Of a stretch of DNA of 64,000 bases, positions 47,950 to 63,710 are shown piece after piece; position 1 is the stretch's first letter, and every line of letters begins with the position of its first letter. The notes under the pieces were generated by a model, which searched no databases, was not told the DNA's origin, and saw only the letters and a list, made by a program, of their open reading frames with translations. The DNA is from a virus. Position numbers and translations under genes: made by a program. The stretch covers positions 1 to 64,000 of the IMG/VR virus record IMGVR_UViG_3300004457_000028; one strand, written 5' to 3'.

Positions 47950-48028
47950 ATCTACCCATCTACATACGAGACTTAAACCTACTGAGTGTTCTTCGCAGTC
48001 ATGCGTTTAGGATAGCGTGCTCGTGAAC

Positions 48029-48284: not shown

Positions 48285-48435
48285 CTCGCTCGGAGTGAAG
48301 GTGATTTATTTTCAACGAGCGAGGTCACTCGTGGGGTTATCCCCAACCGTATGGATGGAAGATGGAACGAACAGGGGCAACGCATCCCCCGCCGAAGGCG
48401 GGGAAGGACTGCGCTTAGCAGTCCCTGCGAAGCAG
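48285..48435. other. Cluster of GC-rich hairpins (ncRNA or ssDNA structure)
   Basis: Stems CTCGCTCG/CGAGCGAG, TGGGG/CCCCA, CCCCGC-CGAA-G-GCGGGG, GGACTGC/GCAGTCC and CTGC-GAA-GCAG. Confidence 0.5.
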
Positions 48436-48463
48436 TCGCTCCGCTGGCGTGCGTAACAAGGCC

Positions 48464-48512
48464 AAAAAGCCAAAAAAAAAGCCCCCCACGCCGCCGAAGC
48501 GGTGTGAGGGGC
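48464..48512 (-). terminator. Hairpin plus oligo-U terminator for the 48569-49405 gene
   Basis: Minus strand GCCCCUCACACCGC-UUCG-GCGGCGUGGGGGGC followed by U9GGCU5. Confidence 0.65.
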
Positions 48513-48568
48513 GGCTACCCAGTGAGTGAGTCACTGGTGGGGGTGCGCTGAGTGGCTCAGTGGCCTAC

Positions 48569-49405: not shown

Positions 49406-49436
49406 CTTTCTCTCTCCTTCACGGTGTAGTATAATG

Positions 49437-49453
49437 CCGCTTTATATATCAAC
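49437..49453 (-). promoter_or_regulatory. Viral promoter motif copy 12 (GTTGATATATAAAGCGG)
   Basis: One mismatch to the consensus. Confidence 0.75.
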
Positions 49454-49481
49454 TCCAAGCAGTGATGCGTTCTTGCCACTT

Positions 49482-49996
49482 GTTACGGGGCGTATGCTAC
49501 GGCGCAAGGAGGGTGGCTTAGTTGCCACCCATACGGGTGGGGGTCAAGGGGCGTGGCTTGAGGCTTAACGCTGGACTGAGAGGCGAAGCGTTACGCTGCC
49601 CTACGAATCGGCAGGTGGCGTAACCTAAACGCTGCACTGAGCAGCATAAGGCTTAGCAGTGTAGCGGTCTATAGAAGTTGAAGCCTGAAGCCCCTACTCG
49701 TGGTGCGTGATGCAAGCCCTGCTCGCAGCGCCACGCTGCTACGCAGCGTTGTGCTGCTCCCTTGTTACGGCAAGGCTACTCAGCCGAGCGCCACGCTTGC
49801 GAGGCCAGCAGCAAACAGCGCCGCAGTGCCTTGTTACGCCCCTTAGTTACGCCCCCCTTAGGCGGAGGCATAGTAGTTACGCCCTGTAGTTACGCTTCTT
49901 TGGTCACACGCAGAGTTCCAGCAAAAAAAAATTGAAAATAAAAATTGACCTCGCCGTAGTCCTTTGATTTTCCGCATAATTCATAGAGTAGTTACG
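49482..49996. repeat. GTTACG repeat array at the strand-divergence point
   Basis: GTTACG at 49482, 49590, 49764, 49833, 49846, 49876, 49889 and 49991; inverted copy at 49619; A-tract at 49923-49944. Confidence 0.7.
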
Positions 49997-50009
49997 CATC
50001 AGATGGGAT

Positions 50010-50729
50010 ATGTCGGATGCTTTTTCAGATGCTTTCTCTCTTCTGAAGGCCACTCCTTACAAGAAAAAAGTATTGGCTGATATGCAAGCGGGAAAGCGTG
50101 AACACGCTCAGCGTCGTATGCAAACTGGGCCTACTGAAGACCCTGATGACGAGTTTCAATACGACACCGAAGACGGGTCAAAGAAACCAATTGGTGAAGA
50201 CGAAGACACCGGGTATGACATGCGACCTACCGAAGAGCGCCGCAGAGAAAGCGACAACCCTTTTCATCACGATGCCTTAGACACAGTAGACAAGTCTGCA
50301 TTTGACTTGGCTTTGAAGGCTTTGCAGCCATCGCCTCATCACATGGATGAAGGGCTTGATGAAAAGCAGATGCGTCACTTCGGAAACATGCAGGGAATGA
50401 AGCAACGCTTTAGCGGCAGTCCTTCTTTTGCTCACGGTATGGAAACATTACCACCAGCACCTATGATGCCTCAAAGTAGTGGTCAGCGAAACTCTAACAC
50501 AACGGGAACTTTCCCTCCTAACCCACCGCCACAGCATCCAATGGCTGGTTCTCCGAACACTCAAGAGATGCCGAGAAACATTGAACAGCAAGCAAGACCT
50601 CTTAGCGAATCCAACCCATACGGGAGAATCAAAGAGTCGGAACTACAACGACTCGCTGACGAGTTTGGTATACCATTCGCAAAGGCTTGGACTATGTTAA
50701 ACCCTACTCAAGAAGAAATAAGAGGCTGA
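50010..50729 (+). CDS. Tagged low-complexity protein (AFxxAxxLLK family)
   Basis: N-terminal 'MSDAFSDAFSLLKA'; internal 'SAFDLALKA' and 'PFAKAWTML'. Confidence 0.7.
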   Translation: MSDAFSDAFSLLKATPYKKKVLADMQAGKREHAQRRMQTGPTEDPDDEFQYDTEDGSKKPIGEDEDTGYDMRPTEERRRESDNPFHHDALDTVDKSAFDLALKALQPSPHHMDEGLDEKQMRHFGNMQGMKQRFSGSPSFAHGMETLPPAPMMPQSSGQRNSNTTGTFPPNPPPQHPMAGSPNTQEMPRNIEQQARPLSESNPYGRIKESELQRLADEFGIPFAKAWTMLNPTQEEIRG

Positions 50730-50735
50730 TTTGAT

Positions 50736-52280
50736 GTGTCAGCGTTTGATACTGCGTGGTTTTTGATTAAAGCACCCATGTGGTATGGAGACGATGAAGA
50801 AAAACCACCTGCTAATCCTCGTTATGACATGCTTGAGCACATGTCGTGGGGATTAGACCCAAACTCATGGCAGCAAGCGTGGGAATCCGAAGACGGAAAC
50901 GCTCGTGCTATTGTCAAACCTGACCATAACGAAGGTAACTGGCTTATCTCTCATTACGAAATCAAAGATAATGAGTCTGCACAGGGACATGGTAGAGGAA
51001 CTCAGTATCTTCAAGAATTAAAATCTACACTTAGACCCGACGAAGAGCCTGAGATTCATGAGCACCCTTACGATTTTCATGTGACTCATGTAGAACCATC
51101 AGCCGTAGGATTTTGGGAAAAAATGGTAGACAGAGGCGTAATTGACGGGGCGCACGAAACATCATGGGTGCGAAAAACTCCTGACGGTGATGAGCATTTT
51201 ACCCACCCCTACAACCACGAATCAAAGAAACCATACAAACCTCAAATGATTGCTAAAGATGATAGGACAATGGATGTTTGGAAGCGGCGAGCACGCAATA
51301 TGGGTTTAGGAGATGTCCCATACGATTTCTTAGACAGGGACAGCAGTTCAGTGCAAAACTGGAAAGGAGATAGAGAGGGCAAAATAGGTCACGGTGCTAA
51401 CCGATATGCATTAGTTGGTGACAAAACTGTAGAAAAGATTCCTAACACCTTTGGTAGAGGACAGGACAAATCTTCGTTGGCTATGATAAACGCTCTTGCT
51501 TCACTCGGTTATCCTATTATTCCTGAGACACCAATCGGCACAGACAACCCTCGCTTTTTCCCGACTGAGCAAGCCAAAGTAGACAGGAGTGATAATCTAA
51601 TACCAAATCATCTTGTTGAACCTGATGATATAGATGAGTTTAACAGAATAAAAGGTAAGTTTGACCAAGACCTACTTGACCTTGATTTTGAAGTTGCTCA
51701 AGAATCTCCACTCGGACAGGCGTTAGATGTAGGGGACATTTACGAAAATGAAGACAATGTTGGCTACAAAGATGGTAAACTCATGGCGATTGACCCATAT
51801 ATAGGTCACTTACATGACCTAAACAGGTTTGGACAAGATTTGAGTCAAATGACTGGGCCAATTTCTTCTAAAAATACAATTTATCAAAACAGACAAATGC
51901 CGAGTAGACACTCAAATTACGGTGGCACAGAGCGACGAGAATACAAGAACAATAAATTGTATCAAGGATTTCAAAATGTAGACCCGATGCAGTTTAATTC
52001 TTTTAATCAACTCTATCATGACAAAGAACAATTCAAACCGTGGGATGCTGTTGAAGAAAAACTGTTTAGTGACCCTCAATCATTTGGTCAATACGCTCCT
52101 AATTCTAATCAAATGCAACAATTAACTCAACACATGGATAAAGATAATGCAAACTACAAAAATGTAGGCGCTGCGTTAGATTGGATGAACACCCCTCCTG
52201 AGCAAAAGCGCTTGTTTGAGTTTGGTGATGACACTCACGCACGAAGATACCGTAACATGTTGGCATCTTTGAATTACTGA
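50736..52280 (+). CDS. Tagged protein with GNAT-like and protein-kinase-like domains
   Basis: 'MSAFDTAWFLIKA'; GNAT-like 'QGHGRGTQYL...AVGFWEKM'; kinase-like 'IGHGANRYA..VEK', 'GDIYENEDNVG', 'MAID'. Confidence 0.6.
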   Translation: MSAFDTAWFLIKAPMWYGDDEEKPPANPRYDMLEHMSWGLDPNSWQQAWESEDGNARAIVKPDHNEGNWLISHYEIKDNESAQGHGRGTQYLQELKSTLRPDEEPEIHEHPYDFHVTHVEPSAVGFWEKMVDRGVIDGAHETSWVRKTPDGDEHFTHPYNHESKKPYKPQMIAKDDRTMDVWKRRARNMGLGDVPYDFLDRDSSSVQNWKGDREGKIGHGANRYALVGDKTVEKIPNTFGRGQDKSSLAMINALASLGYPIIPETPIGTDNPRFFPTEQAKVDRSDNLIPNHLVEPDDIDEFNRIKGKFDQDLLDLDFEVAQESPLGQALDVGDIYENEDNVGYKDGKLMAIDPYIGHLHDLNRFGQDLSQMTGPISSKNTIYQNRQMPSRHSNYGGTERREYKNNKLYQGFQNVDPMQFNSFNQLYHDKEQFKPWDAVEEKLFSDPQSFGQYAPNSNQMQQLTQHMDKDNANYKNVGAALDWMNTPPEQKRLFEFGDDTHARRYRNMLASLNY

Positions 52281-52318
52281 CCGCTACTCTTTTATCAAGC
52301 AACATCGTGGGATGAACG

Positions 52319-53206
52319 ATGACCGCTTTCTCCGATGCCTTTTACATCTTGAAAAATGAGCACTTTTTTGATATTGCATACAACGATTTAGTTGAAAAAG
52401 GTAAAGCAGAGGAGTTTATTCAACTTCAACAGCGAAGACAATTTGTTCTTGATAATGAAAACTCACCTGACCCTGCTATGCGTCAAGCGGCTGAAGACGA
52501 ATATCAGAAACTCATGCAAGAAATGAGTGCGAGAAGGGGACAACAACCAATGGGTGGCCCTGAAGGGCCAGTCGGTGAAGGCGCTGCTATGGGCCAAATG
52601 TCTCAACCACCAATGTCTCAAGCCAGTCCATTAGAGAAGGCTTGGGGATTCTTGAAAAAGAATGTAGTTGGTCATCAAGATGGTCAAGAATACAATATGC
52701 CTGACCCTATCTCATCAATGGCTCAACGCCAACAAGTGCCTGAGACGATGACTCAAACTACACAAACACCTGCTCCGGGTATGTTTGGTCGTTTCAAACA
52801 ACCAGTAACTAACACGGCTGAAATCCCAACTGGTCAAATGTCTCTCGGTCAAAGAGAAGGCCCAGTTCAACCAAATGCACCTCACCCAATGGGAGGGACA
52901 AATATAGGACAAGCACCGGGCGCAGAAGTAACTCGTGCTCCACGCCCCGGCCCTTTCAAACCCACCAGCAGTGACCCGATGGGACATGAAGGCCCATCTT
53001 TTCAAACAAGTCTTTCAGGACAAGGCTACTACACTAACGAACAGGGCGAAGCGGTAACTGACAATGTATATGACAGAAAAAACATGTCACGGATGGGGAA
53101 TGACGACTTTGACCTACCCGTTGGGCAAGCGCCAAGATGGATGAGTAGTCAAGATACACCCGATGGTTCGTATGGCGACCAGTTTAACCCAAACCGACAG
53201 TTTTGA
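52319..53206 (+). CDS. Tagged Q/P/G-rich protein
   Basis: 'MTAFSDAFYILKN', 'FFDIAYNDLVEKG', 'PLEKAWGFLKK'. Confidence 0.7.
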   Translation: MTAFSDAFYILKNEHFFDIAYNDLVEKGKAEEFIQLQQRRQFVLDNENSPDPAMRQAAEDEYQKLMQEMSARRGQQPMGGPEGPVGEGAAMGQMSQPPMSQASPLEKAWGFLKKNVVGHQDGQEYNMPDPISSMAQRQQVPETMTQTTQTPAPGMFGRFKQPVTNTAEIPTGQMSLGQREGPVQPNAPHPMGGTNIGQAPGAEVTRAPRPGPFKPTSSDPMGHEGPSFQTSLSGQGYYTNEQGEAVTDNVYDRKNMSRMGNDDFDLPVGQAPRWMSSQDTPDGSYGDQFNPNRQF

Positions 53207-53258
53207 TGTCGCTTCTTAAGCGATATGCTTTTGTTTAGGTATGACTTGGCGTTAGTTA

Positions 53259-54446
53259 ATGCCGAGTGAGAACTATGACTTTGTGCCGTGGGATTCTCCC
53301 GACGACATTGAGAAGTTTGTTCCGGCTCTTTTAGCGGGAGCAAGAGCGTTAGCACCAAAAATAGCAGGTAAACTTGGTGGTATGAAAACAGCAACTGGTG
53401 GTTTTTTACAAGGCGCAAAAAAGAAAATAGGCGATGTCGCCAGTAAAGTTGGTATCAAAGGTGGTGGCGCAGCAACAATTGCTACTGAGGGTGCGGCCAG
53501 TGCTACTAAAACAGCGGCCAGTGCTGCGAATGAAGCAGTAGCGTCTGCTGCCCCTAAACCTGACTTGGGAACAAAGATGCCAACTGCTGAGGTTTCTACT
53601 CCTGAACCACCTGCTGCTGAACCAGCAGTTGAAACTCCTGAACCTACAGAACCAAGTGGGAGTGCTGGTAAGAAGAACGATTACAAAAAAGTCGGTATGC
53701 AATTGGCTCAACAAATGCAAGCAGGTGCTGCTCAAAGAAAACAAGCGCAAGAGCAAAGGGCGGCTGATATGGCTCGCCGTGGTGCATCAGTGCAAACTGG
53801 TGAGGCGATGGATATTGCTTGGCGGTTGTTGAAGCGTGATTTGTCCGAGATGACAGATTATGAAATAGACCGAGCAAGGTTCGCTAATGATAATCCGGAA
53901 CTTCAAAGTGAAGAAAGAACAAGGGCTATGGACAGAATGGCAGAGTTTGCTCGTCAAAATGTCACACCGTTTGATTACGGAGATGAAGTTGAAGAAGCGT
54001 ATGACGATATAGGCGACCAAGACCATTCGGATTATTTCGGTGAAGACATAGACTCTAATGAGTTGTATCAGTATATTTTAGAAAATGCAGGTCAAGAAGC
54101 GGCGCAAAACTATGTTCAACAATACAAAGACGCTCGTGCAAAGTATGGAGGTAATGCCGCAACTATGGGTCAGTTGGATAACTACGGAATAAGTAACCAA
54201 GGTGATGCAAACGACTTCATAGAAAGTCGTGAAAGAATGACAGGTGACATGCGTAACATCATGCCGAATGACGAAACTGTATTTGACGCTTATCCTTATC
54301 CCGAAGGAGTAGTGTATAACAATAAGTTGTCACCTCCGTTTACCACCACTCCTGAAAACGAATCTAATTTTCAAATGAAATATACAGGCGAACCAATGGA
54401 CATCGCCTATCAGTTGTTGAAAAACTGGGAGGGGACTACACAATGA
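53259..54446 (+). CDS. Tagged multi-module protein (Ala/Gly/Lys amphipathic module plus acidic module)
   Basis: 'DDIEK|FVPALLAG', 'GEAMDIAWRLLKR', 'GEPMDIAYQLLKN'. Confidence 0.7.
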   Translation: MPSENYDFVPWDSPDDIEKFVPALLAGARALAPKIAGKLGGMKTATGGFLQGAKKKIGDVASKVGIKGGGAATIATEGAASATKTAASAANEAVASAAPKPDLGTKMPTAEVSTPEPPAAEPAVETPEPTEPSGSAGKKNDYKKVGMQLAQQMQAGAAQRKQAQEQRAADMARRGASVQTGEAMDIAWRLLKRDLSEMTDYEIDRARFANDNPELQSEERTRAMDRMAEFARQNVTPFDYGDEVEEAYDDIGDQDHSDYFGEDIDSNELYQYILENAGQEAAQNYVQQYKDARAKYGGNAATMGQLDNYGISNQGDANDFIESRERMTGDMRNIMPNDETVFDAYPYPEGVVYNNKLSPPFTTTPENESNFQMKYTGEPMDIAYQLLKNWEGTTQ

Positions 54447-54619
54447 CAGCATTTGACAACGCTTGGGATTACCTTGAAAAGAAACTATGCCCGAAAGGTA
54501 AAGCAGCAGCAAAGCGTAAGTTTGATGTTTACCCATCAGCGTATGCAAATGGATATGCTGTGCAAGTTTGTCAAGGTAAAATTGGCGTAGGTAAGAAAAA
54601 GAAGGGGAAAAAGAAATGA
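54443..54619 (+). CDS. 58-aa tagged basic protein (DUF5872-like; not in ORF track)
   Basis: MTAFDNAWDYLEKKLCPKGKAAAKRKFDVYPSAYANGYAVQVCQGK...KKK*; ATGA overlaps at both ends. Confidence 0.75.
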   Translation: MTAFDNAWDYLEKKLCPKGKAAAKRKFDVYPSAYANGYAVQVCQGKIGVGKKKKGKKK

Positions 54620-54927
54620 CACGCTGCACTTGTCATGATGTTCTCATTGTCAAAGACCTGAAAAGGTGGTTTGATGAAAAGTGGGTTGATGTCAGTCGTA
54701 AAGACAAAGACGGTAAACACCCACCATGCGGTAGGAACAAAGCAAAGAAATCCAGTAAGGGTTATCCAAAATGCAGACCAAGTGTAAAGGTCAGCAATAA
54801 AACTCCAAAAACTTCAGGCTCAATGTCAGAAGGACAAAAATCCGCTGCTACAAAACGCAAGCGCTCAAAGAAACAAGGCGTAGGTGGAAAGCCTACTATA
54901 GTCAAAATGGTTGGAGTGATACGATGA
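54616..54927 (+). CDS. Basic phage protein (DUF5872-related 'LKRWFxEKWVD' type)
   Basis: 'LKRWFDEKWVDV...PPCGR...YPKCRP'; highly Lys-rich. Confidence 0.7.
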   Translation: MTRCTCHDVLIVKDLKRWFDEKWVDVSRKDKDGKHPPCGRNKAKKSSKGYPKCRPSVKVSNKTPKTSGSMSEGQKSAATKRKRSKKQGVGGKPTIVKMVGVIR

Positions 54928-55238
54928 CGGCATTTGAGACAGCATGGGATGTTATTGAAAAGGGCAAAAAAAAGTCCAAACCATTCCACGGTTACAATCC
55001 AAACAAGCATAGTAAAAAAGGTGGACTAAATGCCAAAGGTCGTGCTACTGCTAAGCGTGAAACAGGTGCAAACCTCAAACCCCCTGTTACTAAAAAACCA
55101 AGTTCACTCAAACCCGGTAGTAAGTCGGCAAAGCGTCGTAAATCATTTTGTGCTCGTATGAGTGGAATGAAAGGTGCAACTTCTAAAAAGGGCAAACTCA
55201 CTCCTAAAGGTGCATCATTAAAGAGGTGGAACTGTTGA
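54924..55238 (+). CDS. Tagged basic protein (DUF6321-like)
   Basis: 'MTAFETAWDVIEKG'; 'GGLNAKGR...NLKPPV...RRKSFCARM...RWNC'. Confidence 0.75.
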   Translation: MTAFETAWDVIEKGKKKSKPFHGYNPNKHSKKGGLNAKGRATAKRETGANLKPPVTKKPSSLKPGSKSAKRRKSFCARMSGMKGATSKKGKLTPKGASLKRWNC

Positions 55239-55393
55239 AAGATAAATGCTGCTGTGGGGCTACAAAAAGCACTCCTTGTGAGTGTATGAAGAAAGATATT
55301 CAGTGCTCGGCTAAAGCCCCCAAGTGTCCTTGTTACAAACTTTTAGACAAGCAAACTGGGAAAACAAAAGTAGCGGTGAAGAAATATGCCTAA
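55235..55393 (+). CDS. 52-aa Cys/Lys-rich metallothionein-like microprotein (not in ORF track)
   Basis: MKDKCCCGATKSTPCECMKKDIQCSAKAPKCPCYK...; TTG start with GAGGTGG SD; fills the gap between its neighbours. Confidence 0.55.
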   Translation: MKDKCCCGATKSTPCECMKKDIQCSAKAPKCPCYKLLDKQTGKTKVAVKKYA

Positions 55394-56975
55394 CATTGGT
55401 GTCATTCGTAAAGGCCCAGTATACCCAGCCTTTGGGTTGGATAACTTCAATCAATATATTGCACCGCTTGGTCAGGCAATCAACCAAGGACACGATAGTT
55501 TTGAGCATGTAAACCCCAATGGTGGTGATAGAACTTATTTGAATCAACAAATTAGCAGTAGAATTAACGCAGGTGTTACTGGGAATATACCTGTTTTTGA
55601 TAACCTCTCTCTTCAACACGATGCAGATGAGAAAAAACAATTTGAAATGAACTCTCATTATCAATTAGAACATCTAATGAGAACTGCTCCGCACATGTTT
55701 AGTGATATAGGAGTAAACCAAAGAATGTTTTTACAAACAGGTGTAATACCTCAAGGTTGGAATAGTAACCCTGCTATGTCATTACCATTTGAAGACAAAA
55801 AGCGTGTTCGTAATACTAAAACTGGAACTTATGATTTTCACAGTCAAAGAAATATACCTGAACGACGACACCCACTGGTAGTAAAACCACACGATATAGG
55901 AATGGTTTACGAGCGAGGCCGTGACAATAGATTTTCACCAGTTACCTCTACACCCACTCCTATGTGGCTTGCTGGTGCAAAGTCAAAACATCTTACAGCA
56001 AGACCATTAGGAGTTGAACAAAACTCAATGCCAAAACATCACGAACTGGAAATCTATGACCGCCATAATAGACATAACACAGCGAATGGTTTCAAACCCG
56101 GAATGACAATGCCTATACAAGCACAAGTTTTGAGACATTCTCATAAGAAACCTGAAGTTCGTGAAGAAGTAGAGCCAGCAGAGCCAGTAGAGTTAGAAGA
56201 AGGAAAGAGACTGAGTGGGGATTTACCTATTTCACTAAAGACTCATTTCAAAACTGGTAAGAATAGCGTTGGAGTAAAAGGCAAGATTCCGGCTAAGTGG
56301 GCTAATGAGGGTAATCCAAACAGTTTACCTCGTAGAATCGCAAACATAAATGATGCACATGATGCTGAAATGATTAGTGATGAAGATAAAAAAACTCTTT
56401 TGACCTTTCTCTTACAACATTCTATAGAAAGTGGACACTTAAACATGCAAGATTTAACAGGTCAATTTAATCGTAAAAAATGGAATGTCGCTGACGATGA
56501 TGCATACAGTGCTGCTCTTATGGAGATACAAAAGGCTCGTTTTGAAAGAATTACAGACTTGCTATTGAAGGAGCGTAAATCACCTGAAGCCATGCGTCGT
56601 AAGAAAGAATACGATACCAAATACGAGGCTTCTCCTGATAGAGTCAAGTATAGAGAGGATTTGAATAGAGAGCGACACAAGCGTGGTATGTATGGCGACC
56701 ACTCTCACCGTGACATTTCACACACCGAAGGTGGTAAATTGACAGTAGAAGACGAGCATAAGAACAGAGCAAGACATTTCAAAGACAAAGGGACACTACG
56801 ACCTATCACAAAAGGAATCAAGCAAGACCTTGAATTGCTTAGAAACTTAATGGCTGGGCCTATGGATGAGCAAGATAAATCAATAGCACAGGCTTTACTG
56901 ACTTCTTTAGACGACTACCATCAAGAAGAAAATGTAGAAAGTAGAAAAGAATTGATGCATCCTTATCCATTCTAA
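55386..56975 (+). CDS. Multi-module protein with a C-terminal HNH-like domain
   Basis: After 'ARFERITDLLLKE' comes 'KKEYDTKY...RDISH..GGKL...KNRARH', an HNH-like motif. Confidence 0.6.
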   Translation: MPNIGVIRKGPVYPAFGLDNFNQYIAPLGQAINQGHDSFEHVNPNGGDRTYLNQQISSRINAGVTGNIPVFDNLSLQHDADEKKQFEMNSHYQLEHLMRTAPHMFSDIGVNQRMFLQTGVIPQGWNSNPAMSLPFEDKKRVRNTKTGTYDFHSQRNIPERRHPLVVKPHDIGMVYERGRDNRFSPVTSTPTPMWLAGAKSKHLTARPLGVEQNSMPKHHELEIYDRHNRHNTANGFKPGMTMPIQAQVLRHSHKKPEVREEVEPAEPVELEEGKRLSGDLPISLKTHFKTGKNSVGVKGKIPAKWANEGNPNSLPRRIANINDAHDAEMISDEDKKTLLTFLLQHSIESGHLNMQDLTGQFNRKKWNVADDDAYSAALMEIQKARFERITDLLLKERKSPEAMRRKKEYDTKYEASPDRVKYREDLNRERHKRGMYGDHSHRDISHTEGGKLTVEDEHKNRARHFKDKGTLRPITKGIKQDLELLRNLMAGPMDEQDKSIAQALLTSLDDYHQEENVESRKELMHPYPF

Positions 56976-56976
56976 C

Positions 56977-57070
56977 TTGTCTAACTTGTCCGATGTATTG
57001 TTTACACAATATACTGTATTTACTATTCTTCTAAATGTATAGACTATACAACGGACAACAAGGACAACAC
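56977..57070. repeat. Inverted-repeat/AT-rich element 3 (origin-like)
   Basis: Left arm TTGTCTAACTTGTCCGATGTAT, AT-rich core, right arm ATACAACGGACAACAAGGACAACAC. Confidence 0.7.
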
Positions 57071-57084
57071 CCCCAGTAACCTTT

Positions 57085-57702
57085 ATGATGACCCCCGCAG
57101 TGGACAGACCAGTGGACATTATGGATAATCAAGACCATCACGATGCAGAAATACGCCTCATGGGACTAATTTTGGCTCAAAGCACACTGGTTGGAGTAGC
57201 GGTTGGAATCTTTGACGCAAGGGTTTGGCTAACACAAGACAGTGTTTGGATAAATGGTTTCACTTATGCGATGGGTGCATTCTTTGTTCAAGGTATAGCA
57301 TACTACTTCTTTAAGATGTTCTTTGAGCAAAACCTACAAGAAAAGGTAAGACATGGTAACATGGAAAAGCAAAGGAATAATCAATACAGGAGTATGCAAA
57401 CTCAATTTGATAATCGTAGAGCCGACATGGAAATGCGTATGCAAGAAGCACAACTTGAGCGTGAATTACGCTGGATGGAAAATAACCCCGGTAAGATGCC
57501 GCCAAGTTGGGGTGTTCAGGGTGGTGCTCAATCTATGGTAGGTTTTTACGACCAACAAGGTGGGGCTGCTGCTTCTTTTGACGGTAGTAGGATTCCTACT
57601 CATGAGGCTAAGATTTTACAACCACTTACTCTTGGAGTAGAAGAAGACATACCATTGAAGAAAGATGGCACGCCTGATAAAAGATTTGAAAAGAAATCTT
57701 GA
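57085..57702 (+). CDS. Membrane protein (2 TM helices plus coiled coil)
   Basis: Hydrophobic 'LMGLILAQSTLVGVAVGIF' and 'GFTYAMGAFFVQGIAYYFF', then Q/E/R heptads. True start may be 57109 or 57121. Confidence 0.7.
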   Translation: MMTPAVDRPVDIMDNQDHHDAEIRLMGLILAQSTLVGVAVGIFDARVWLTQDSVWINGFTYAMGAFFVQGIAYYFFKMFFEQNLQEKVRHGNMEKQRNNQYRSMQTQFDNRRADMEMRMQEAQLERELRWMENNPGKMPPSWGVQGGAQSMVGFYDQQGGAAASFDGSRIPTHEAKILQPLTLGVEEDIPLKKDGTPDKRFEKKS

Positions 57703-57715
57703 GTGAGGTTTACTC

Positions 57716-57973
57716 ATGGGCCGAATCTTTCGCACTCCTTCTGATGATGCTACTGAAAGCACGCTGCGTGCTATTCACATAGCAAATACCGTTGATAATG
57801 CATACGAAAGAACTTGGGGTTGGGTAAAGACTATCCTTGCCTCCGGTATTACATGTGTAGTAGTAAGTGGTATTGAGTTTTACAATCCTGAGTTCAGTAT
57901 ATACGAAAATACAGTAGACTGGGCCGTTGAAAAACTTGAAGACTTAATCAATTGGTTAAAGTGGTGGGATTGA
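57716..57973 (+). CDS. Small single-pass membrane protein
   Basis: 'WGWVKTILASGITCVVVSGIEF'; amphipathic Trp-rich C-terminus; GAGGT SD. Confidence 0.65.
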   Translation: MGRIFRTPSDDATESTLRAIHIANTVDNAYERTWGWVKTILASGITCVVVSGIEFYNPEFSIYENTVDWAVEKLEDLINWLKWWD

Positions 57974-57976
57974 TTC

Positions 57977-58699
57977 ATGGTAGACCCCGGTGGCACTGCA
58001 TTGGTAGGTGCAGCGATGTGGGGTCAGCATATTTACAATTCATATAAACCAAGAAGAGTCGGTATCTACGGAGCACCTCTCGTTGGTAAAACAACTCTTG
58101 ACCGCTATCTTACTACTCCGGGTGAAATGGAAGAGATAGAAGAAGAAGATAGAACTACTCATAGTCGTATACTGAAATTAGGTAATTACAGAATGCCTAA
58201 ACCAACAAGAAAAAGAATTGGTTGGAATGGTGAGAAGAGAGTCGTATATTCATCAGACATAGGTGGACAAGAGAGGTTTTGGAATCTTTGGATTGAAGAC
58301 ATGGTAACTCGTGGAGTAGAAGCCGTAGTTTACATTTTTGACGATAGGGCTTTCAAAGGTGGAGATGAAAGCATAAAACAAATTGCTGGTTTTCGTTATC
58401 TTGTAGATTGTTTAATACAAAGAAATTATCGCTATCGTTCAGTATGGGCGAGATTCAAAGGTAGAAAGTATCACCCAAGAGTGGTTATGCTTGTAGCGAA
58501 TAAAGCAGATAGATTCTTTGATGAAACCGCATCTAAACTTTGGCATGAGGGTCGTATAGGTGAACATAAGATTTTTGACCCATTTAGAGATGACTTAATC
58601 AGGCTACAAAAAGCAGGTATTCCTACTCGTAGGTCATTCATGGCTACAAGGATTGGATGGAATGTAGAAAAGACAATGGTGAGCCTTTTAACATCTTGA
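57977..58699 (+). CDS. Ras-superfamily small GTPase (Arf/Sar/Rab-like)
   Basis: G1 'GAPLVGKTT', G3 'DIGGQERFWNLW', 'AVVYIFD', G4 'ANKAD', G5-like 'MATRIGWNVE'; hydrophobic N-terminal helix. Confidence 0.9.
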   Translation: MVDPGGTALVGAAMWGQHIYNSYKPRRVGIYGAPLVGKTTLDRYLTTPGEMEEIEEEDRTTHSRILKLGNYRMPKPTRKRIGWNGEKRVVYSSDIGGQERFWNLWIEDMVTRGVEAVVYIFDDRAFKGGDESIKQIAGFRYLVDCLIQRNYRYRSVWARFKGRKYHPRVVMLVANKADRFFDETASKLWHEGRIGEHKIFDPFRDDLIRLQKAGIPTRRSFMATRIGWNVEKTMVSLLTS

Positions 58700-58754
58700 C
58701 CAAAAAAGTGACCCCATAGGTAGCCTTTTGAATAACAACTCTTTCGGTGTAAAT

Positions 58755-58952
58755 ATGTCAAGCAAGAAATCGTCTACTACTTTGGTGTCCACTGGTGGTG
58801 GGAGTCGTAGCCTAAGAACAACTGTTCCTATGTTTATTGTAGAACATTTTGGTCTTACTGCTGGAGATGATGTTAATTGGAGATTTACTGTTCAAGAGGG
58901 ACAGATTGTAGTAGTCATGACACCTACGGCTGAGCAGGTCGTGGTAGAATGA
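58755..58952 (+). CDS. AbrB/SpoVT-type swapped-hairpin DNA-binding protein
   Basis: 'SRSLRTTVPMFIVEHFGLTAGDDVNW'; likely start MSSKK. Confidence 0.75.
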   Translation: MSSKKSSTTLVSTGGGSRSLRTTVPMFIVEHFGLTAGDDVNWRFTVQEGQIVVVMTPTAEQVVVE

Positions 58953-59884
58953 TGATGTTTAACAGACAACCCCAACAAAATCTAAATGAGGCTCAATTGT
59001 CTACTTTGGCTATGCAAGGTAATGAACAACTTACTCAGGCTGCACTTCAAGAAATGTTGATGGCTCAACAAGGAATGCAAGAAGCAGCACAGGCTGGTAA
59101 CATAGAAGTTCCTAAAGTTAATTTTTACCCAAGTCGCCATGCTGACCCACGAAAGGCTCGTAAAAAAGACATCAAGCAAGCATACAAATTACTTCAACCA
59201 GCAAAGCGTTCTATATTCAATCCTATGAGATGGGTATTTGGTCGTAAGTATCGTTACAACAAAGATACAGGAACTTGCGTTGTAGACGGAGCAAATGTTG
59301 CTGAATTGATGAAACATGATAATCTCTATATGCGTATCTGTGACGATGAAACAGGTCGCTCTCTTTGGGAAATGTATTGGCAAAACCCAGTTACTGGTCA
59401 GCCTGAAGCGTTTATTGCTCTTGACAAAGTGACCAGTGGTAAGAAAATGCGAGGGACATACTGCCCTGAACATCTTCATTTGTATCATCTACTCTGTAAA
59501 TGGGAGGCCGAAGAAGACAAACAGAATGAAATGAACCCAAGTCGTCTCCGTGATAAAGTGAAAAGAGGAGTCTCAATTGTTACTGTCCCTGTATCTTCTG
59601 TAAAAAAGAAAGACCCTACACCTGCTATGCTAACAAAATACGAACCGTTCTTTGCTGAACTTGAAAGAGATGCTGGTAGAACAAAGGGAATCAATCTAAT
59701 CCATTATGCTAACCCAGCCACTGGTCAAAACGATATTACCATGGTTGTATTTGACCTTCGTATATTTCAATTAGAACTTCAACAAATGAACATGCCAACG
59801 CAAGCGTTTCAAGAATTACTTAATGTTGAGAATACCAAAATGCAACAGAACCTTGATGGTGCAGTAGCGGTTGGGGAGGCATGA
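58949..59884 (+). CDS. Hypothetical protein (Q-rich N-terminus, Cys/His core)
   Basis: 311-aa coupled ORF; 'CPEHLH'. Confidence 0.7.
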   Translation: MMMFNRQPQQNLNEAQLSTLAMQGNEQLTQAALQEMLMAQQGMQEAAQAGNIEVPKVNFYPSRHADPRKARKKDIKQAYKLLQPAKRSIFNPMRWVFGRKYRYNKDTGTCVVDGANVAELMKHDNLYMRICDDETGRSLWEMYWQNPVTGQPEAFIALDKVTSGKKMRGTYCPEHLHLYHLLCKWEAEEDKQNEMNPSRLRDKVKRGVSIVTVPVSSVKKKDPTPAMLTKYEPFFAELERDAGRTKGINLIHYANPATGQNDITMVVFDLRIFQLELQQMNMPTQAFQELLNVENTKMQQNLDGAVAVGEA

Positions 59885-59888
59885 TACG

Positions 59889-60560
59889 ATGTTCAATCTT
59901 GGCGCACAACAACAACAACCAAACGGATTAAATCTCTCAGCAACTGGGGGAGGAATGGGTTACGGTATGCAGCAACCGCAAAGCGGATTTAGTCTTGGAG
60001 CACAACCGATGCAACAACAAATGCAGCAGCAGAATCAAGGATTTATGGCTGGTATGATGGGTAGTGCGGGGATGACACCTCAGCAACAAATGATGATGCA
60101 GAACGGACAAGTCACTCCTCCATCAGAAATGGAACTTATGAATGCTCTATTACAATCTCAAAATCCTATTCATCGTTTTATCAAAGACGGAGGGCTTGGT
60201 AGTTTGATAGATTTGATTGCAGCGACAACCAGCCTAAGTATGCTAAACATTCTTAAAAACGCCACATTCGTTATTGATGAAGACGAGGGTGGTATGAAAC
60301 TTGACCCTGCAACATTATCTTCTGACTTACAAACCCTAAGCATTGAAAATGTGAGTATGGTCTTGAATAACATGGTTGCTCAAAGCAATCAAAAGTTCCA
60401 AGAGGCTGAAATGCAAAGACAACAGATTATTGCTATGTCTCAACAATCAATGATGGGTGGGGCGTTAAGTGCTGCTTTACAAGATGAAGGTATGATGAAC
60501 AAAATGGGCGGCGGAATTGGTAGCGTTGCTCGTGGGCTTATAGGACTACCAAGAAACTGA
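59889..60560 (+). CDS. Q/M/G-rich low-complexity protein with a helical core
   Basis: Likely start MFNLGAQQQQ after a GGAGG SD. Confidence 0.7.
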   Translation: MFNLGAQQQQPNGLNLSATGGGMGYGMQQPQSGFSLGAQPMQQQMQQQNQGFMAGMMGSAGMTPQQQMMMQNGQVTPPSEMELMNALLQSQNPIHRFIKDGGLGSLIDLIAATTSLSMLNILKNATFVIDEDEGGMKLDPATLSSDLQTLSIENVSMVLNNMVAQSNQKFQEAEMQRQQIIAMSQQSMMGGALSAALQDEGMMNKMGGGIGSVARGLIGLPRN

Positions 60561-60569
60561 GGCGATATA

Positions 60570-60821
60570 ATGGTGCAATCGGGTAGTATGAAAGATTACG
60601 GAATGAGAGTAAGTGAAGCGAGTAGTAGTATTTTTGCTCCAAGTAGAAACATCATTACTGAAATGATTATGGTTCAGTTTATTGCAGTAATTATGGCTTG
60701 CACAGGTATTCTAATTTTCAAAGGTGACGAAATGAGCAGCGGGGATGTAAGCGTCTTTGTTGTAGGTATTTTTGGAGCGTTTATTTTCTTAACCACTCTT
60801 TACTCAAGAATCACTCGCTGA
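60570..60821 (+). CDS. Small 2-TM membrane protein (holin-like topology)
   Basis: 'MIMVQFIAVIMACTGILIF' and 'VSVFVVGIFGAFIFLTTLY', ending in a basic tail. Confidence 0.65.
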   Translation: MVQSGSMKDYGMRVSEASSSIFAPSRNIITEMIMVQFIAVIMACTGILIFKGDEMSSGDVSVFVVGIFGAFIFLTTLYSRITR

Positions 60822-61064
60822 CCACTTGTTTATCGGGCATGAAACTGATGGCGCAAGAGCCTTAATTTTCATGACGCAACTACACAGTCGGCAAGTCCCC
60901 ATTCTTTTTTGCATGTAAGGACATTGATAACACTCATCAAGTCTCGCCATGTATAGTTTTTTAGAGACTCTGTTGCCTTTCAGTGCATCTTTTGATGCTT
61001 TGATTAAATCTTTACCACGCTCTTTGAGAGGTTGCTTTGGAACTCTCTCGTAAGGTGGGAGCAT
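60804..61064 (-). CDS. DUF6171-like Cys-rich protein
   Basis: 'RLDECYQC...CRLCSC.MKIK....SCPINKW'; partial promoter motif TTAAAGCAGCA at about 61106-61116. Confidence 0.65.
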   Translation of the reverse strand: MLPPYERVPKQPLKERGKDLIKASKDALKGNRVSKKLYMARLDECYQCPYMQKRMGTCRLCSCVMKIKALAPSVSCPINKWSASDS

Positions 61065-61123
61065 GTTCCTCCGAGTAGGTTTTCATGAAAAAGGATTATG
61101 GGTAATGCTGCTTTAAGCCAATC

Positions 61124-61807
61124 ATGGCGGAGGGTAACCCAGTATCAAAACGGTCTTGCCCTTTGTGTCAGCACCCAAGTCGTGAAGACTTAGAGAAGGG
61201 ACTCCTTGATGGTGAAATCTCTTCTAAACAATTAGACAAAGACATGGGCTGGAGGCTGAACACAACAGACCGTCATTTTCGTAATCACATGGGTCAGTTC
61301 CACATGGCTTCTAATCCTCAGTGCAAAGTTTGTGCTGATGTAGGTAGGGCTGATTTTGAGCGTCGTTATTTTGAAGATGGCTCTCAGTCAGAAACAATTG
61401 CTGAAGAACTTGGTATTGCTGAGTCATCTGTTTATCATCACATGAAACATCACTTTCAACCGTTAGTTCAAAGAAGTGCGGCTGCTGAGATTACATTAGT
61501 CGTAGGAGAAGAGGTTAATGCGCTCAGGTCAAATGTTGAACTCCTCAATGTTAAATTGTCTGAATTGCTCAATGAGGGTAGTGTCCATGAAGATGGGTTT
61601 GTTAGAGATGCGGTGTCACTGCACAAAGAAGTCAGAGAATCAATAAAGGACTTGTTAAAGATGAACGAACAGTGGAGTCCTACATCTGAAAACAGTCAAG
61701 TCAATAATACAATTAACATCCTCAAGGTTGAACTTGGTAAAGAAAGCCCTGACTCTTGGGCGAGGATTCGTAACTCTTTGTTAGAACATGCGGGTGACAT
61801 AAATTGA
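61124..61807 (+). CDS. Zn-finger/HTH plus coiled-coil protein, terminase-small-subunit-like
   Basis: Two repeats of 'CxxC...HTH...H..H' ('CPLCQHP', 'CKVC', 'IAEELGIAESSVYHHMKHH'), then helices and 'NNTINI'. Confidence 0.45.
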   Translation: MAEGNPVSKRSCPLCQHPSREDLEKGLLDGEISSKQLDKDMGWRLNTTDRHFRNHMGQFHMASNPQCKVCADVGRADFERRYFEDGSQSETIAEELGIAESSVYHHMKHHFQPLVQRSAAAEITLVVGEEVNALRSNVELLNVKLSELLNEGSVHEDGFVRDAVSLHKEVRESIKDLLKMNEQWSPTSENSQVNNTINILKVELGKESPDSWARIRNSLLEHAGDIN

Positions 61808-62205
61808 TGCCAGTTCCTGTTCCTGATTTGCTACAAATGACCCATCCGGGTTATGCGCTGGTAGAGCGTGACTCGCCTGTATCAGCGTATAATGTTCCAA
61901 TCTATCTTGATTTTTGTCGTTGTATTACAATGAGATTTGAGCACTACGGTGAGTTAGAGATTACTCCACCTGACCTTTTCAAATTACTCACAAAGTCTTT
62001 TGAAACTGTTTTTGAAGATGATGACCCCGTTACATTTTTCCCAGCATATCATCTTATACCTCGTTTACTTGAAGAGTTTGAGCACACCATAAAAAATATG
62101 ACATCTGCATTTGAAGATAGTCCGAGAATTATGTTGTTCTATAGAAAAATAAGTCAAAAACTGCGACAGTGTTTTGAACATCATATACAGGGGGATAACA
62201 CATGA
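61804..62205 (+). CDS. Hypothetical protein
   Basis: Coupled ORF. Confidence 0.55.
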   Translation: MMPVPVPDLLQMTHPGYALVERDSPVSAYNVPIYLDFCRCITMRFEHYGELEITPPDLFKLLTKSFETVFEDDDPVTFFPAYHLIPRLLEEFEHTIKNMTSAFEDSPRIMLFYRKISQKLRQCFEHHIQGDNT

Positions 62206-63710
62206 CGGGTGGTATGATGGGGCGAACCTCCGACACGAGGATATACAATCCTCGCTCCGAGTCCTCTGAAATGTTCAGGGCTAATCATGAAGATGAAAGG
62301 CCACCAAGCGGTATGGAGGATGGCCGAGACAAAGAAGCACGCAAAGATAAGCGTCAAGCCAAGAAAGAGGCTGAGGAAAAAGAGGATAAAAAAATCCGTC
62401 ACATCAAAGTCCGTTCACATCACCTTGGCCTTGACAGTGAAAAATCTATTGAGGATAAAGACGAGGTAGATGAAGAAGAAGAGAAGTTCAAACCTCGTGG
62501 TTCAGTTGATAACCCATCTGACCAAACTATGCCAAGCGGCACTGGTGGATTCATGACGAGCCTCGCTATGGGTGCTAAAGGGCCGGGTGCTGCTCGTGGT
62601 GAAATGATTCAGATGTCTGAGCCTATGCAAATGGCTAATCAGTTGTTGAAAGAAGTTACTCCTTACAACGAGTCGCCATTTCCTCATGGAGTTGCACCTT
62701 TAGAGGATGTTTCATGTCCTCATTGTGGGGATAAACTTGAAGGAACATATAGAGAACTTCATACTAACGACCCATTGGTTGAACTCTATTGTAGGACTTG
62801 TGATATTTACGATGATTCTTCTGTGGATAATTATAGTAGTAGTTCACTAAAGTTAAATCCACCAATTATCCAAAAAGGTGAACCAATGGACATCGCTTGG
62901 CAACTATTGAAATCAAAAAAAACGACTGCTAAACGCAGAAAAGAAGAAGGGTATTCAAAGTGGCGACCATCTACAGGACAATTTGAACGCCCAAAAGGAG
63001 GCGGTGACCCTCGTAACGCCACATCAAGGCGTGCAAAGAACATCAGTCGTAATCTCCCGTTAGGTAGAAAGACTGGACTCATGAGGCCGCATCTTTCAGT
63101 TGAGTTTTCTCACCGAGGTCTTGCGAGTAAACAACCAATGAGTAAAGACCCACAAAAATACGGTGCTTATCTTGCATCTCAAGAGGCTCGTAAACTACAA
63201 GGTGGTGTAAGAAGCACTACGACACCACACATGAGACACAGCCAACGCTCATTCATATCAGGTCAAACTGGTGGTGGTCGTTTGACAAACACTCTACAAT
63301 ACCCTCGTGTCCCAAGACCACGACTACACGCAGTTCGTGCTCCAAGTATTCAACCACCTAAAATGAAGATGCCCCACTTAGCACGACCTAAGATGCCGGG
63401 TATGGTGACAATGAGTGAAGATATTCCTCAACACAGTGATATTCTCAAAGCAGGTAATGCATATCAAGCAGCATTGATGCGAATTGCTCTCAAAGAGATT
63501 CGTGAATTGATGCGTGAAAAGAAAGACAAGGATAAGAAAACAAAGGGAAAGGGGAATCCTGATGTTGCTGGTGCTGCGAGTAGTCTACCAAATTACGAAG
63601 CAAATAATCCTAAGACAGCAACTCGCCCCGAAGGTGGCACTGAAGATGAAAACGACTCACGCCTTTGGGGATTAGCCCCCGGCGATATTGCGGGGAGTGG
63701 GCGGATTTGA
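62202..63710 (+). CDS. Tagged multi-module protein (charged module, Zn-ribbon module, basic modules)
   Basis: 'SEPMQMANQLLKE' - CPHC..CRTC - 'GEPMDIAWQLLKS' - basic region - 'HSDILKA'. Confidence 0.7.
   Translation: MTGGMMGRTSDTRIYNPRSESSEMFRANHEDERPPSGMEDGRDKEARKDKRQAKKEAEEKEDKKIRHIKVRSHHLGLDSEKSIEDKDEVDEEEEKFKPRGSVDNPSDQTMPSGTGGFMTSLAMGAKGPGAARGEMIQMSEPMQMANQLLKEVTPYNESPFPHGVAPLEDVSCPHCGDKLEGTYRELHTNDPLVELYCRTCDIYDDSSVDNYSSSSLKLNPPIIQKGEPMDIAWQLLKSKKTTAKRRKEEGYSKWRPSTGQFERPKGGGDPRNATSRRAKNISRNLPLGRKTGLMRPHLSVEFSHRGLASKQPMSKDPQKYGAYLASQEARKLQGGVRSTTTPHMRHSQRSFISGQTGGGRLTNTLQYPRVPRPRLHAVRAPSIQPPKMKMPHLARPKMPGMVTMSEDIPQHSDILKAGNAYQAALMRIALKEIRELMREKKDKDKKTKGKGNPDVAGAASSLPNYEANNPKTATRPEGGTEDENDSRLWGLAPGDIAGSGRI

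Follow-up and report, generated by a model that had tools for sequence, protein, structure and literature searches.

A lysine-terminated peptide tag shared by unrelated magrovirus protein modules, a candidate signal for cargo loading into the prohead

We describe a short peptide tag that accompanies otherwise unrelated protein modules in a magrovirus, a member of a group that ranks with the most abundant viruses of archaea in surface ocean waters. From its sequence, and by analogy with the capsid targeting sequence (CTS) of phage T4, we read the tag as a portable docking helix joined to a prohead-protease site, an interpretation that we consider probable, if only narrowly. The window analysed is the first 64 kb (64,000 nucleotides) of a genome that is 103,294 bp in full. 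Magrovirus hosts are without culture and the majority of magrovirus genes are without annotation.

Tag copies in the genome

A profile built from 11 copies of the tag was searched against the complete genome translated in six frames. All 11 strong copies (13.1-21.8 bits) are + strand features within 50,010-62,912, and the best profile match outside them scored 5.5 bits; a simple motif pattern gave 10 matches in the block against one weak match elsewhere. The preliminary description, which had placed the tag at the start of five ORFs and at internal positions, holds at every place it named. Its further remark that the tag is missing from the - strand is correct for this genome but does not extend to the relatives, some of which have tagged ORFs on the opposite strand. 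The DNA coding for the tag varies among copies chiefly at synonymous positions, and the peptide is thus the conserved level.

Seven consecutive ORFs (50010..55238, + strand, as are all the features below) are either tagged or part of a tagged pair. ORF1 (50010-50729) starts with a tag at 50010..50048 (13.1 bits) having its L-L-K end at residue 13, and ORF2 (50736-52280, GTG start) with one at 50736..50771 (14.6 bits). ORF3 (52319-53206) has an N-terminal tag (52319..52354, 15.4 bits), a second in tandem with it that ends in V-E-K (52358..52399, 14.2 bits) and an internal one (52622..52657, 14.2 bits). Within ORF4 (53259-54446) the internal tag G-E-A-M-D-I-A-W-R-L-L-K (53799..53834, 18.3 bits) separates a basic half (pI 9.0) from an acidic half (pI 4.1), and a C-terminal tag (54387..54422, 19.8 bits) is followed by the stop 7 residues on. 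N-terminal tags are also carried by ORF5 (54443-54619; tag at 54443..54481, 21.8 bits) and ORF7 (54924-55238; tag at 54924..54962, 17.8 bits). Farther downstream, ORF20 (62202-63710) contains a diverged internal tag, S-E-P-M-Q-M-A-N-Q-L-L-K (62616..62651, 14.1 bits), and a canonical one (62877..62912, 20.1 bits) after which comes a very basic module (pI 11.6). The Zn-ribbon-like cassette of this ORF (62652..62876), with a tag on either side, is missing from most orthologues, and over residues 151-225 the conservation among 34 orthologous segments drops to about 0.

Three weak instances that had also been claimed as tags, S-A-F-D-L-A-L-K, A-R-F-E-R-I-T-D-L-L-L-K and H-S-D-I-L-K, score under the profile threshold. 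Orthology nevertheless indicates that they are genuine degenerate tags, because orthologues have, at the matching position ahead of the corresponding downstream module, a canonical tag or a conserved variant that ends in [IL]-L-K. The first (ORF1, 50295..50318) precedes a module starting A-L-Q-P-S-P-H-H-M, and in relatives this module has a canonical N-terminal tag immediately before it. The second lies at 56535..56570 in ORF9 (55386-56975), and of the canonical form only L-L-L-K is kept there; an HNH-like module starting E-R-K-S-P-E-A-M-R comes next, and canonical or tag-derived segments with a hydrophobic-hydrophobic-K end precede that module in relatives. The third is a variant of canonical length in ORF20 (63411..63449), consisting of M-S-E, seven residues and I-L-K, of which orthologues keep M-S-[ED]...S-[DE]-[IL]-L-K. 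Degenerate tags have lost the helix residues and retained the hydrophobic-hydrophobic-K end.

The tagged block at 50010..55238 is the start of a + strand unit in which the terminase, portal, protease and major capsid protein (MCP) genes follow outside the window. Since it lies beside a divergent junction with the replication module and has regulator-like genes (AbrB/MazE-like, HTH) inside, the block could be an early region.

Modules attached to the tag

The payload identities given in the preliminary description stand to different degrees. Two have Pfam matches: the ORF7 payload (pI 11.6) is DUF6321 (E 8.2e-18, residues 29-102), and ORF6 (54616-54927) matches positions 55-114 of the DUF5872 profile (E 1.7e-11). 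The small, basic ORF5 has no Pfam match of its own, and we read it and ORF6 as the two halves of a split DUF5872, N-terminal and C-terminal respectively. The modules resembling ORF6 and DUF6321 are separate ORFs here and are joined through an internal tag in some relatives. The GNAT-like assignment of the ORF2 payload and the HNH-like assignment of the ORF9 module (phrog_6437) are ESM Atlas leads only (0.88 in both cases), and the Zn ribbon of ORF20 is named from its CxxC...CxxC pattern only. In relatives the ORF2 payload is found behind an N-terminal tag or fused after an internal one. The charge of the payloads spans very basic to very acidic.

The tag in related viruses and in cellular genomes

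Across 80 related loci the profile search gave 271 tag matches scoring 10 bits or more, with 257 on the + strand and up to 6 tags in one ORF. The modules after these tags fall into at least 104 families unrelated to one another, and several families follow N-terminal as well as internal tags; this bears out the claim that the tag is portable before, between and after unrelated modules. N-terminal tags have a minimal fixed length, the K being at residue 12-13 in 91 of 114, and C-terminal tags are placed 2-7 residues from the protein end. Modules are shuffled among relatives, and some of them have small tagged ORFs among the head genes, on the downstream side of the MCP gene at a distance of about 1.7 kb. 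The tag was not found in the cultured relative HVTV-1, and other viruses that share only DUF6321 gave one match in 61 loci. We also considered whether the tag is a cellular sorting or docking signal of the host lineage. When 185,579 species genomes were scanned with one stringent variant of the motif, 30 single matches resulted, none in an archaeal genome, against a chance estimate of about 35, and this explanation was rejected for that variant; two convincing matches probably sit on mis-binned viral contigs. Judged by this distribution, the tag is virus-specific. No mention of it was found in the papers searched.

Sequence constraints on the tag

The consensus has a Ser/Thr/Gly-x-Pro/Ala cap and a helix part, [FM]-[DE]-x-A-[WFY]-x-[LV]-L; counted from the K, P is at -9, [FM] at -8, A at -5, [WFY] at -4 and L at -2 and -1. 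The hydrophobic residues are spaced i, i+4, i+7, which is the form of a groove-binding amphipathic helix, a likeness of form only. The terminal Lys is conserved in 270 of 271 matches, the exception being Arg. The ending had earlier been given as hydrophobic-x-K, and its Lys is confirmed, while the usual form is more exactly hydrophobic-Leu-Lys, with L-E-K, I-E-K or V-E-K in three copies. Information content drops from about 4.3 bits at the K to about 1 bit at the next position and then to about 0.4 bits. Residues at +1 were counted over 203 unique tags with a profile that ended at K. Pro occurs at this position in none of the 203, compared with 9.1% at +2 to +8 (p = 4e-9), and L, V and W are likewise missing; with the full profile and one tag per module family, Pro at +1 was found in 0 of 104. 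The lack of Pro after the K is as expected of a cleavage site.

Prohead protease and capsid protein

An S78 (HK97-type) prohead protease gene lies beside the MCP gene (L001:16938-18293; PF04586, E 9.6e-10; phrog head maturation protease, E 5e-14), and 42 homologues all keep its His61 and Ser119. In 67 relatives the sequence and the length of the protease leader are hypervariable, but its end, directly before the conserved catalytic domain, is always [LIV]-[LI]-K and then A, G or S. Another candidate site in the protease, F-x-I-L-K at residue 166, could be no more than the final helix of the fold. The MCP has a junction at residue 34, E-L-L-K then S-D, with a length-variable linker upstream and the conserved core downstream. 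Among 120 homologues (31-57% identity), 89 have K in the junction column and 103 have K or R, and about 80% have L, I, V or F two residues before it; the HVTV-1 MCP reads M-S-K then A-D at the aligned spot. The residue preceding the K shows no co-variation between MCP and protease across lineages (L277). The full tag had been expected in the MCP, scaffold or portal, and this expectation failed: the profile did not detect it in the MCP, portal or protease-scaffold protein, and no more than the terminal hydrophobic-x-Lys is shared. The protease-scaffold protein has a distinct C-terminal motif of its own, S-W-[DE]-E-[IV]-H-x-[LM]-A. The likeness of the tag to the MCP and protease junctions, which are the presumed points where the protease would trim the capsid protein and itself, is one of a three-residue ending, weak on its own. 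The proposed analogy with a Lys-cutting head protease agrees with the encoded S78 protease, the similar junctions and the lack of Pro at +1, but the absence of the full tag from the MCP, portal and protease-scaffold protein counts against it.

Discussion

From the existence, distribution, modular use and sequence constraints of the tag we infer a model in which modules are docked, cut by a particular enzyme, packaged and delivered, as follows. The amphipathic helix part would dock the attached module onto a component of the assembling prohead, and the hydrophobic-Leu-Lys end would be a site at which the S78 prohead protease of the virus cuts after the Lys. HK97-type prohead proteases act within the closed prohead, so a module cut by such an enzyme would already be inside. 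Single-module proteins would lose a leader of 12-13 residues; multi-module proteins would be split into separate products and kept in the head with the DNA, and these products may enter the host alongside it. A more general form of this model, in which the tag is a position-independent address code such that any tagged module is loaded into the prohead, freed by the cut after Lys and delivered by the virion as part of an arsenal, is put forward tentatively on the sequence evidence. It is conceivable, though we would not yet call it probable, that this arsenal comprises at least 100 families across relatives, with rapid turnover, and is delivered with the DNA into Marine Group II archaea. That it includes very basic proteins of DNA-binding type together with GNAT-like and HNH-like enzymes is a suggestion of similarly modest strength.

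If the tag were only a linker to be cut, a protease (the prohead protease or another one of viral or host origin) would divide precursors and remove leaders at it, the helix would load nothing, and the products would act in the cytoplasm. Such a linker accounts for the sharp end of conservation at the K, the exclusion of Pro at +1, the position of tags at module junctions and the survival of the hydrophobic-hydrophobic-K end alone in degenerate tags, and it suits a block with regulator-like genes beside the replication module. A bare site, however, has no need of nine more conserved residues with helical periodicity, nor of a place 2-7 residues from the C-terminus or at the very start of single-module proteins, from which the cut would free only a 12-residue peptide; also, the only protease domain found near the tagged genes is that of the prohead protease, which in HK97-type systems is active inside the prohead. 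We regard this account as unlikely. A little less likely still is that the helix, without any cleavage, recruits effector modules to one common partner outside the capsid, which could be a host protein or a viral chaperonin or GTPase-like protein. The F-x-x-x-W-x-x-L spacing is typical of groove-binding helices, of which the p53 transactivation helix is a classic case, the tag is position-independent, and a thermosome-type chaperonin is encoded by the virus. But docking alone leaves unexplained why the Lys is invariant and conservation breaks off abruptly, why Pro, Leu, Val and Trp are excluded at +1, why degenerate copies hold on to nothing but L-L-K, and why the tag resembles the protease-leader and MCP junctions; and since the motif, in the one variant scanned, was not seen in cellular genomes, it is no mimic of a host motif of that form.

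We also weighed whether the tag DNA is mainly a recombination site for cassette swaps, with the peptide as a by-product. The Zn-ribbon cassette placed exactly between two tags, the 68-81% DNA identity of four internal copies over 37 nt and the shuffling of modules point that way. Against this, differences between copies mainly preserve the amino acids, N-terminal and internal forms have a common peptide pattern with little common DNA, and single-residue constraints such as the K and the lack of Pro at +1 are features of the protein level, which makes this origin very improbable. If recombination takes place at tags, as it well may, it would follow from the common peptide and not be its purpose.

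The reading as a docking helix with a prohead-protease site finds its nearest parallel in T4, where a leader of ~10 residues, common to unrelated proteins, is thought to address the head core and to end in a protease site; its payloads are diverse and fast-evolving, and the internal proteins are uniformly basic. This CTS of the internal proteins IPI-III and Alt is reportedly removed by the prohead protease gp21, as Mullaney and Black are said to have described in 1996. Both the CTS and the tag are short leaders on otherwise unrelated, diverse proteins. There is no sequence likeness between them, the T4 site being L/I-x-E and that of the tag hydrophobic-L-K, and gp21 belongs to a different family from the magrovirus protease. 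The magrovirus system is an analogue and not a member of the T4 system, because its tag ends in Lys and its protease is PF04586. The CTS is N-terminal only, whereas the tag is also internal, tandem and C-terminal, with several in one ORF, so polyprotein-like precursors would be divided too. T4 has a handful of payload families compared with the at least 104 counted here, its basic internal proteins contrast with the wide range of charge in magrovirus payloads, and the host here is archaeal.

Other systems share single features with the tag. For HK97 the only substrates known to us are the capsid protein and the protease itself, and we know of no family of tagged cargo. Its protease gp4 is said to be carried into the prohead by a C-terminal tail (reportedly the work of Duda et al. 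in 2013); a short terminal peptide thus suffices for encapsidation, to which the tag may be likened, though the counterpart motif at the C-terminus of the magrovirus protease-scaffold protein is not the tag. The protease family, PF04586, is the same in both, and HK97 gp5 is cut at K103/S104 by gp4 (PMC10275583), after a Lys such as ends the magrovirus tag. Encapsulin cargo-loading peptides, as distinct from the tag, are usually C-terminal, have another consensus, involve no proteolysis and are non-viral. They are short and dock unrelated cargo on the inner face of an HK97-fold shell. In phage phiKZ the cleavage consensus has three residues with Glu last, compared with the 12-residue helix of the magrovirus. 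Two reports on the giant phages phiKZ and SPN3US describe one prohead protease that cuts many head-internal proteins, some of them at more than one site, and cleavage products that are packaged and ejected (PMC7411985, PMC10052503). These are bacterial jumbo myoviruses with a T4-type protease and, unlike the magrovirus, are without a portable leader on unrelated single-domain genes.

If the general form of the model is true, archaeal viruses would gain their first described capsid cargo-loading system, and it would be more modular than any other known from tailed viruses. For packaging, 12 residues able to bring arbitrary proteins into an HK97-fold shell would make a useful handle, and magrovirus head genes can be expressed without virus culture. 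A label for head entry and cutting would show, for dozens of orphan genes in each genome, where the products go and how they are processed, and would mark the proteins that are first to meet the host as candidate anti-defence or take-over factors. It would also show that archaeal viruses, building on an HK97-type protease, came independently of T4 to cargo addressing by a clipped-off leader, and to a form of it more modular and polyprotein-capable than that of T4.

The tag in this genome

Every one of the ORF starts and internal copies quoted in the preliminary description of the tag, an amphipathic helix of about 12 residues ending in hydrophobic-Leu-Lys, is present in the sequence; the ORFs that are tagged or form part of a tagged pair are those of the ORF1-ORF7 block (50010-55238, + strand), ORF9 (55386-56975) and ORF20 (62202-63710). 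At ORF starts the tag takes the form M-x-[AP]-F-[DES]-x-A-[WF]-x-x-[LI]-(E)-K and internally the form [GS]-E-[PA]-M-[DQ]-x-A-[WYN]-x-L-L-K. A profile HMM made from 11 copies scores them at 13.1-21.8 bits, with all 11 on the + strand between 50,010 and 62,912, and the next best match in six frames of the whole genome reaches 5.5 bits. The observation that no tag was seen in - strand proteins is thus borne out in this genome. Three weaker copies are also real though they fall under the profile threshold, as their orthologues place a canonical tag or a conserved variant before the same downstream modules, and degenerate copies retain the hydrophobic-hydrophobic-Lys end. It may be noted that the DNA copies of the tag differ mostly at synonymous positions, and therefore selection acts on the peptide and the possibility of a repeated DNA element was rejected. 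The tagged block also contains regulator-like genes, and the pI of the payloads spans 4.1-11.6. Almost nothing on payload function was obtained from Pfam and PHROGs, and no RNA runs with the tagged block were listed.

The tag in relatives

With the GTPase-like gene at 57,977, which is untagged, as bait, we collected 80 IMG/VR loci (1.30 Mb in total), in which 271 tag matches of at least 10 bits were found, 257 of them on the strand of the bait. Information is high from the Pro/Ala cap through the Lys (P, [MF], [DE], A, [WFY], L, L, K) and drops across these loci from 4.3 bits at the Lys to about 1 bit at the residue after it (+1) and 0.4 bits beyond. The terminal Lys, which had been described as nearly constant, is conserved in 270 of the 271 matches, the sole exception having Arg. 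When the ORFs were divided at each tag and the downstream pieces clustered, at least 104 unrelated module families were obtained, which bears out the observation that what follows the tags is unrelated. Several of these families follow N-terminal as well as internal tags, for example a 45-member family (8 N-terminal, 37 internal), the DUF6321 module (6 and 3) and the N-half of DUF5872 (13 and 2). The ORF2 payload is found in relatives either as a separate ORF or fused behind an internal tag, and the ORF6-like module and DUF6321, which are separate genes here, form a single protein via an internal tag in some relatives. The number of tags per ORF in the relatives varies from one to six, and of 114 N-terminal tags, 91 have their Lys at residue 12 or 13. 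The Zn-ribbon-like cassette of ORF20 is exactly bracketed by two tags, and most of 34 orthologous segments lack it.

DUF5872 itself seems to be split over two ORFs (54443-54927 of the window), which overlap by ATGA at 54616-54619. The C-half ORF matches profile positions 55-114; certain relatives have it joined to DUF6321 with an internal tag between the two. The tagged N-half gives no Pfam match by itself and finishes in a Lys-rich, A-rich stretch. A sequencing error does not account for the split, because the short N-half (40-44 residues past the tag) recurs in 15 relatives.

Distribution outside the tagged block

We scanned 185,579 species genomes with a degenerate DNA pattern encoding P-M-[DE]-x-A-W-x-L-L-K, which gave 30 single matches, close to our own chance estimate of about 35; no archaeal genome is among them, and the majority fall in spurious frames of 20-40 codons. 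Only two are convincing, in real ORFs on two contigs (NZQM01000026.1 and NZQM01000134.1) of the marine alphaproteobacterial MAG 'Parvibaculum sp. EAC60', and these are probably mis-binned magrovirus contigs. Other viruses, with only the DUF6321 domain in common, gave a single match in 61 loci. The haloarchaeal siphovirus HVTV-1 has no tag (best score 6.4 bits) and lacks the gene block ahead of its terminase. In the head-gene neighbourhoods of the 80 relatives (3 kb on either side of the major capsid protein, MCP) there are 6 matches in 0.50 Mb, as against 271 in 1.30 Mb at the tagged block, and the 6 correspond to small tagged ORFs that some relatives carry as insertions about 1.7 kb downstream of the MCP. 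Taken together, these counts argue that the tag is a magrovirus add-on to cargo genes, neither a part of the payload families nor a cellular signal. A separate 'C-x-C-C' dialect of the tag in another lineage was considered and rejected, since the Cys cluster occurs once per locus and only on the DUF6321 gene; behind it lies a canonical-like tag part, P-x-[ED]-x-A-x-x-[VL]-[LM]-K.

Genome layout and head genes

The window covers the first 64 kb of one contig of 103,294 bp. The replication module (11.6-49.4 kb, - strand) comprises a family B DNA polymerase, an RFC-like clamp loader, a thermosome-type chaperonin, a PD-(D/E)XK nuclease, an SNF2 helicase and an ArdC/zincin protein, and from 50.0 kb up to the contig end the + strand is uninterrupted. 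Beyond the window this strand carries the large terminase (67.2-68.7 kb), the portal (71.0-72.8 kb), an S78/HK97-type prohead protease with a long helical C-terminal part (79,938-81,296; L001:16938-18293, L001 being a stretch fetched beyond the window) and an HK97-fold MCP (81,339-82,508; L001:18339-19505). The MCP shares about 32-33% identity with its counterparts in the haloarchaeal siphoviruses HVTV-1, HCTV-1 and HCTV-5, a relation that has been reported for magroviruses (PMC5434244). The overall gene layout is also common to this genome and HVTV-1.

Between the portal and the protease lies an ORF of 1809 aa (L001:11467-16896, genome 74,467-79,896, + strand), syntenic with HVTV-1 gp115, a 1313-aa 'zeta toxin' gene, and having a sub-threshold match to ATP-dependent DNA ligase (E 6.8e-4). 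In its N-terminal part D-L-L-K stands at residue 18, and residues 52-61 (as numbered on the printed sequence) read L-D-D-V-C-Y-S-I-L-K, which resembles the tag; the 5 close relatives found are too few to judge conservation, and the ORF is a candidate for a large internal virion protein. An HMGL-like gene (pyruvate carboxyltransferase-type, PF00682, E 2e-28) at L001:5845-6756 (genome 68,845-69,759), between terminase and portal and adjoining a 410-aa ORF with an HNH endonuclease part, is unusual as a metabolic gene within a head module. The GC content is 55% at 48001-50000 of the window, as opposed to about 41-50% elsewhere; this region spans the divergent junction of the replication module and the tagged block and takes in an Ala/Thr/Pro-rich ORF (48569-49405, - strand). 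At either end the contig stops within a very long open frame that has no Pfam match (window 1-6531, 2,176 codons; genome 92,658-103,292, 3,545 codons, on fetched stretches L002, from 9658 onward, and L003). The two frames do not match across a simple circular join, and so the contig is probably not closed, and they may be parts of one giant tail/fibre-type gene.

The residue after Lys and junctions in the head proteins

As the residues following the tag could bias its selection, the 80 loci were re-scanned with a profile ending at the Lys. Among 203 unique tags, Pro is never found at +1, whereas it makes up 9.1% of the residues at +2 to +8 (p = 4e-9). Nor do Leu, Val or Trp occur at +1, which is mostly Ala, Glu, Met, Ser or Gly. 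When the full profile was used and each module family was counted once, Pro at +1 was again found in 0 of 104 cases (p = 2e-5). Since Pro otherwise often follows a helix, its exclusion agrees better with an S1' pocket than with a helix end.

The small residues after Lys are the same in the tags, at the protease-leader junction and at the MCP junction. The protease, whose His61 and Ser119 are invariant in 42 homologues, opens with a 13-residue leader ending in S-L-L-K and followed by the catalytic domain; in 67 relatives this leader is free in sequence and length, yet its end is always [LIV]-[LI]-K and then A, G or S. The S78 domain ends in an invariant F-x-I-L-K (K166) with a variable linker after it, which might be no more than the final helix of the fold and is given little weight as a site. 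A third conserved site, [IL]-[AT]-K and then S/G/A, lies about 35 residues before the C-terminus. In the MCP we found E-L-L-K followed by S-D-S-P at residue 34. Close MCP relatives being too alike to inform, 120 representatives of 31-57% identity were used instead, of which 89 have K at the junction column and 103 have either K or R; two residues earlier, about 80% have L, I, V or F. The part upstream of the junction varies from 15 to 107 residues, and downstream is the conserved core A-D-A-P-x-L-T-T-T-G. HVTV-1 has M-S-K and then A-D at the aligned place, and the HK97 capsid protein is cleaved at K103/S104 (PMC10275583).

The residue before the Lys (P2) matches between MCP and protease in this virus (L-L-K, I-L-K) and in HVTV-1 (M-S-K, V-S-K). 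A co-variation of the two was rejected, as the one MCP/protease pair of a diverged lineage sampled via IMG/VR (L277) has I-A-K against V-L-K. The AlphaFold2 model of the protease-scaffold (mean pLDDT 40) was too low for use, the residue numbering being from alignment A2, and a three-chain complex prediction of MCP, protease-scaffold and the tagged DUF6321 protein, made with alignments, scored 0.00, which is evidence neither way.

Another motif, S-W-[DE]-E-[IV]-H-x-[LM]-A, has exactly two copies in six frames of the whole genome, one in a 120-aa ORF after the portal (L001:10493-10519, genome 73,493) and one in the protease-scaffold (L001:18246-18272, genome 81,246), each of these head-module proteins carrying it 7-10 residues before its C-terminus. 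In L277 the scaffold and a small upstream protein also end in this motif, which probably serves scaffold-type proteins as a coat-binding tail. The motif has only a loose small-W-x-x-hydrophobic-basic core in common with the tag.

Relation to known systems and proposed mechanism

The closest analogue of the tag is the capsid targeting sequence of the T4 internal proteins, but the site chemistry and the protease family differ, and so the tag system is not a member of that class. In HK97 the known substrates are the capsid protein and the protease only, unlike the tagged cargo here, and in phiKZ/SPN3US the site is a short consensus without the portable helix that the magrovirus tag has. The magrovirus papers PMC5434244 and PMC11706807 make no mention of such a motif. 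The tag as a feature is beyond doubt and can be tested directly, and its function is inferred.

We lean towards reading the tag as a head-docking helix joined to a prohead-protease site. Its C-terminal hydrophobic-Leu-Lys would be the substrate site of the S78 protease, and the helix ahead of it, with hydrophobic positions at i, i+4 and i+7 as in classic groove-binding helices, would dock the module onto a prohead component before the shell closes. Labour may be divided such that each precursor needs one docking helix and each junction one cut site; the degenerate tags at junctions, which have kept the Lys end alone, are consistent with this. To be set beside this mechanism are the heterogeneous payloads, the presence of regulator-like genes in the block and the different signal on the scaffold/protease. 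HK97-type proteases co-assemble into the prohead and act inside it; cutting of the tags by the S78 protease would therefore imply that the magrovirus modules are encapsidated.
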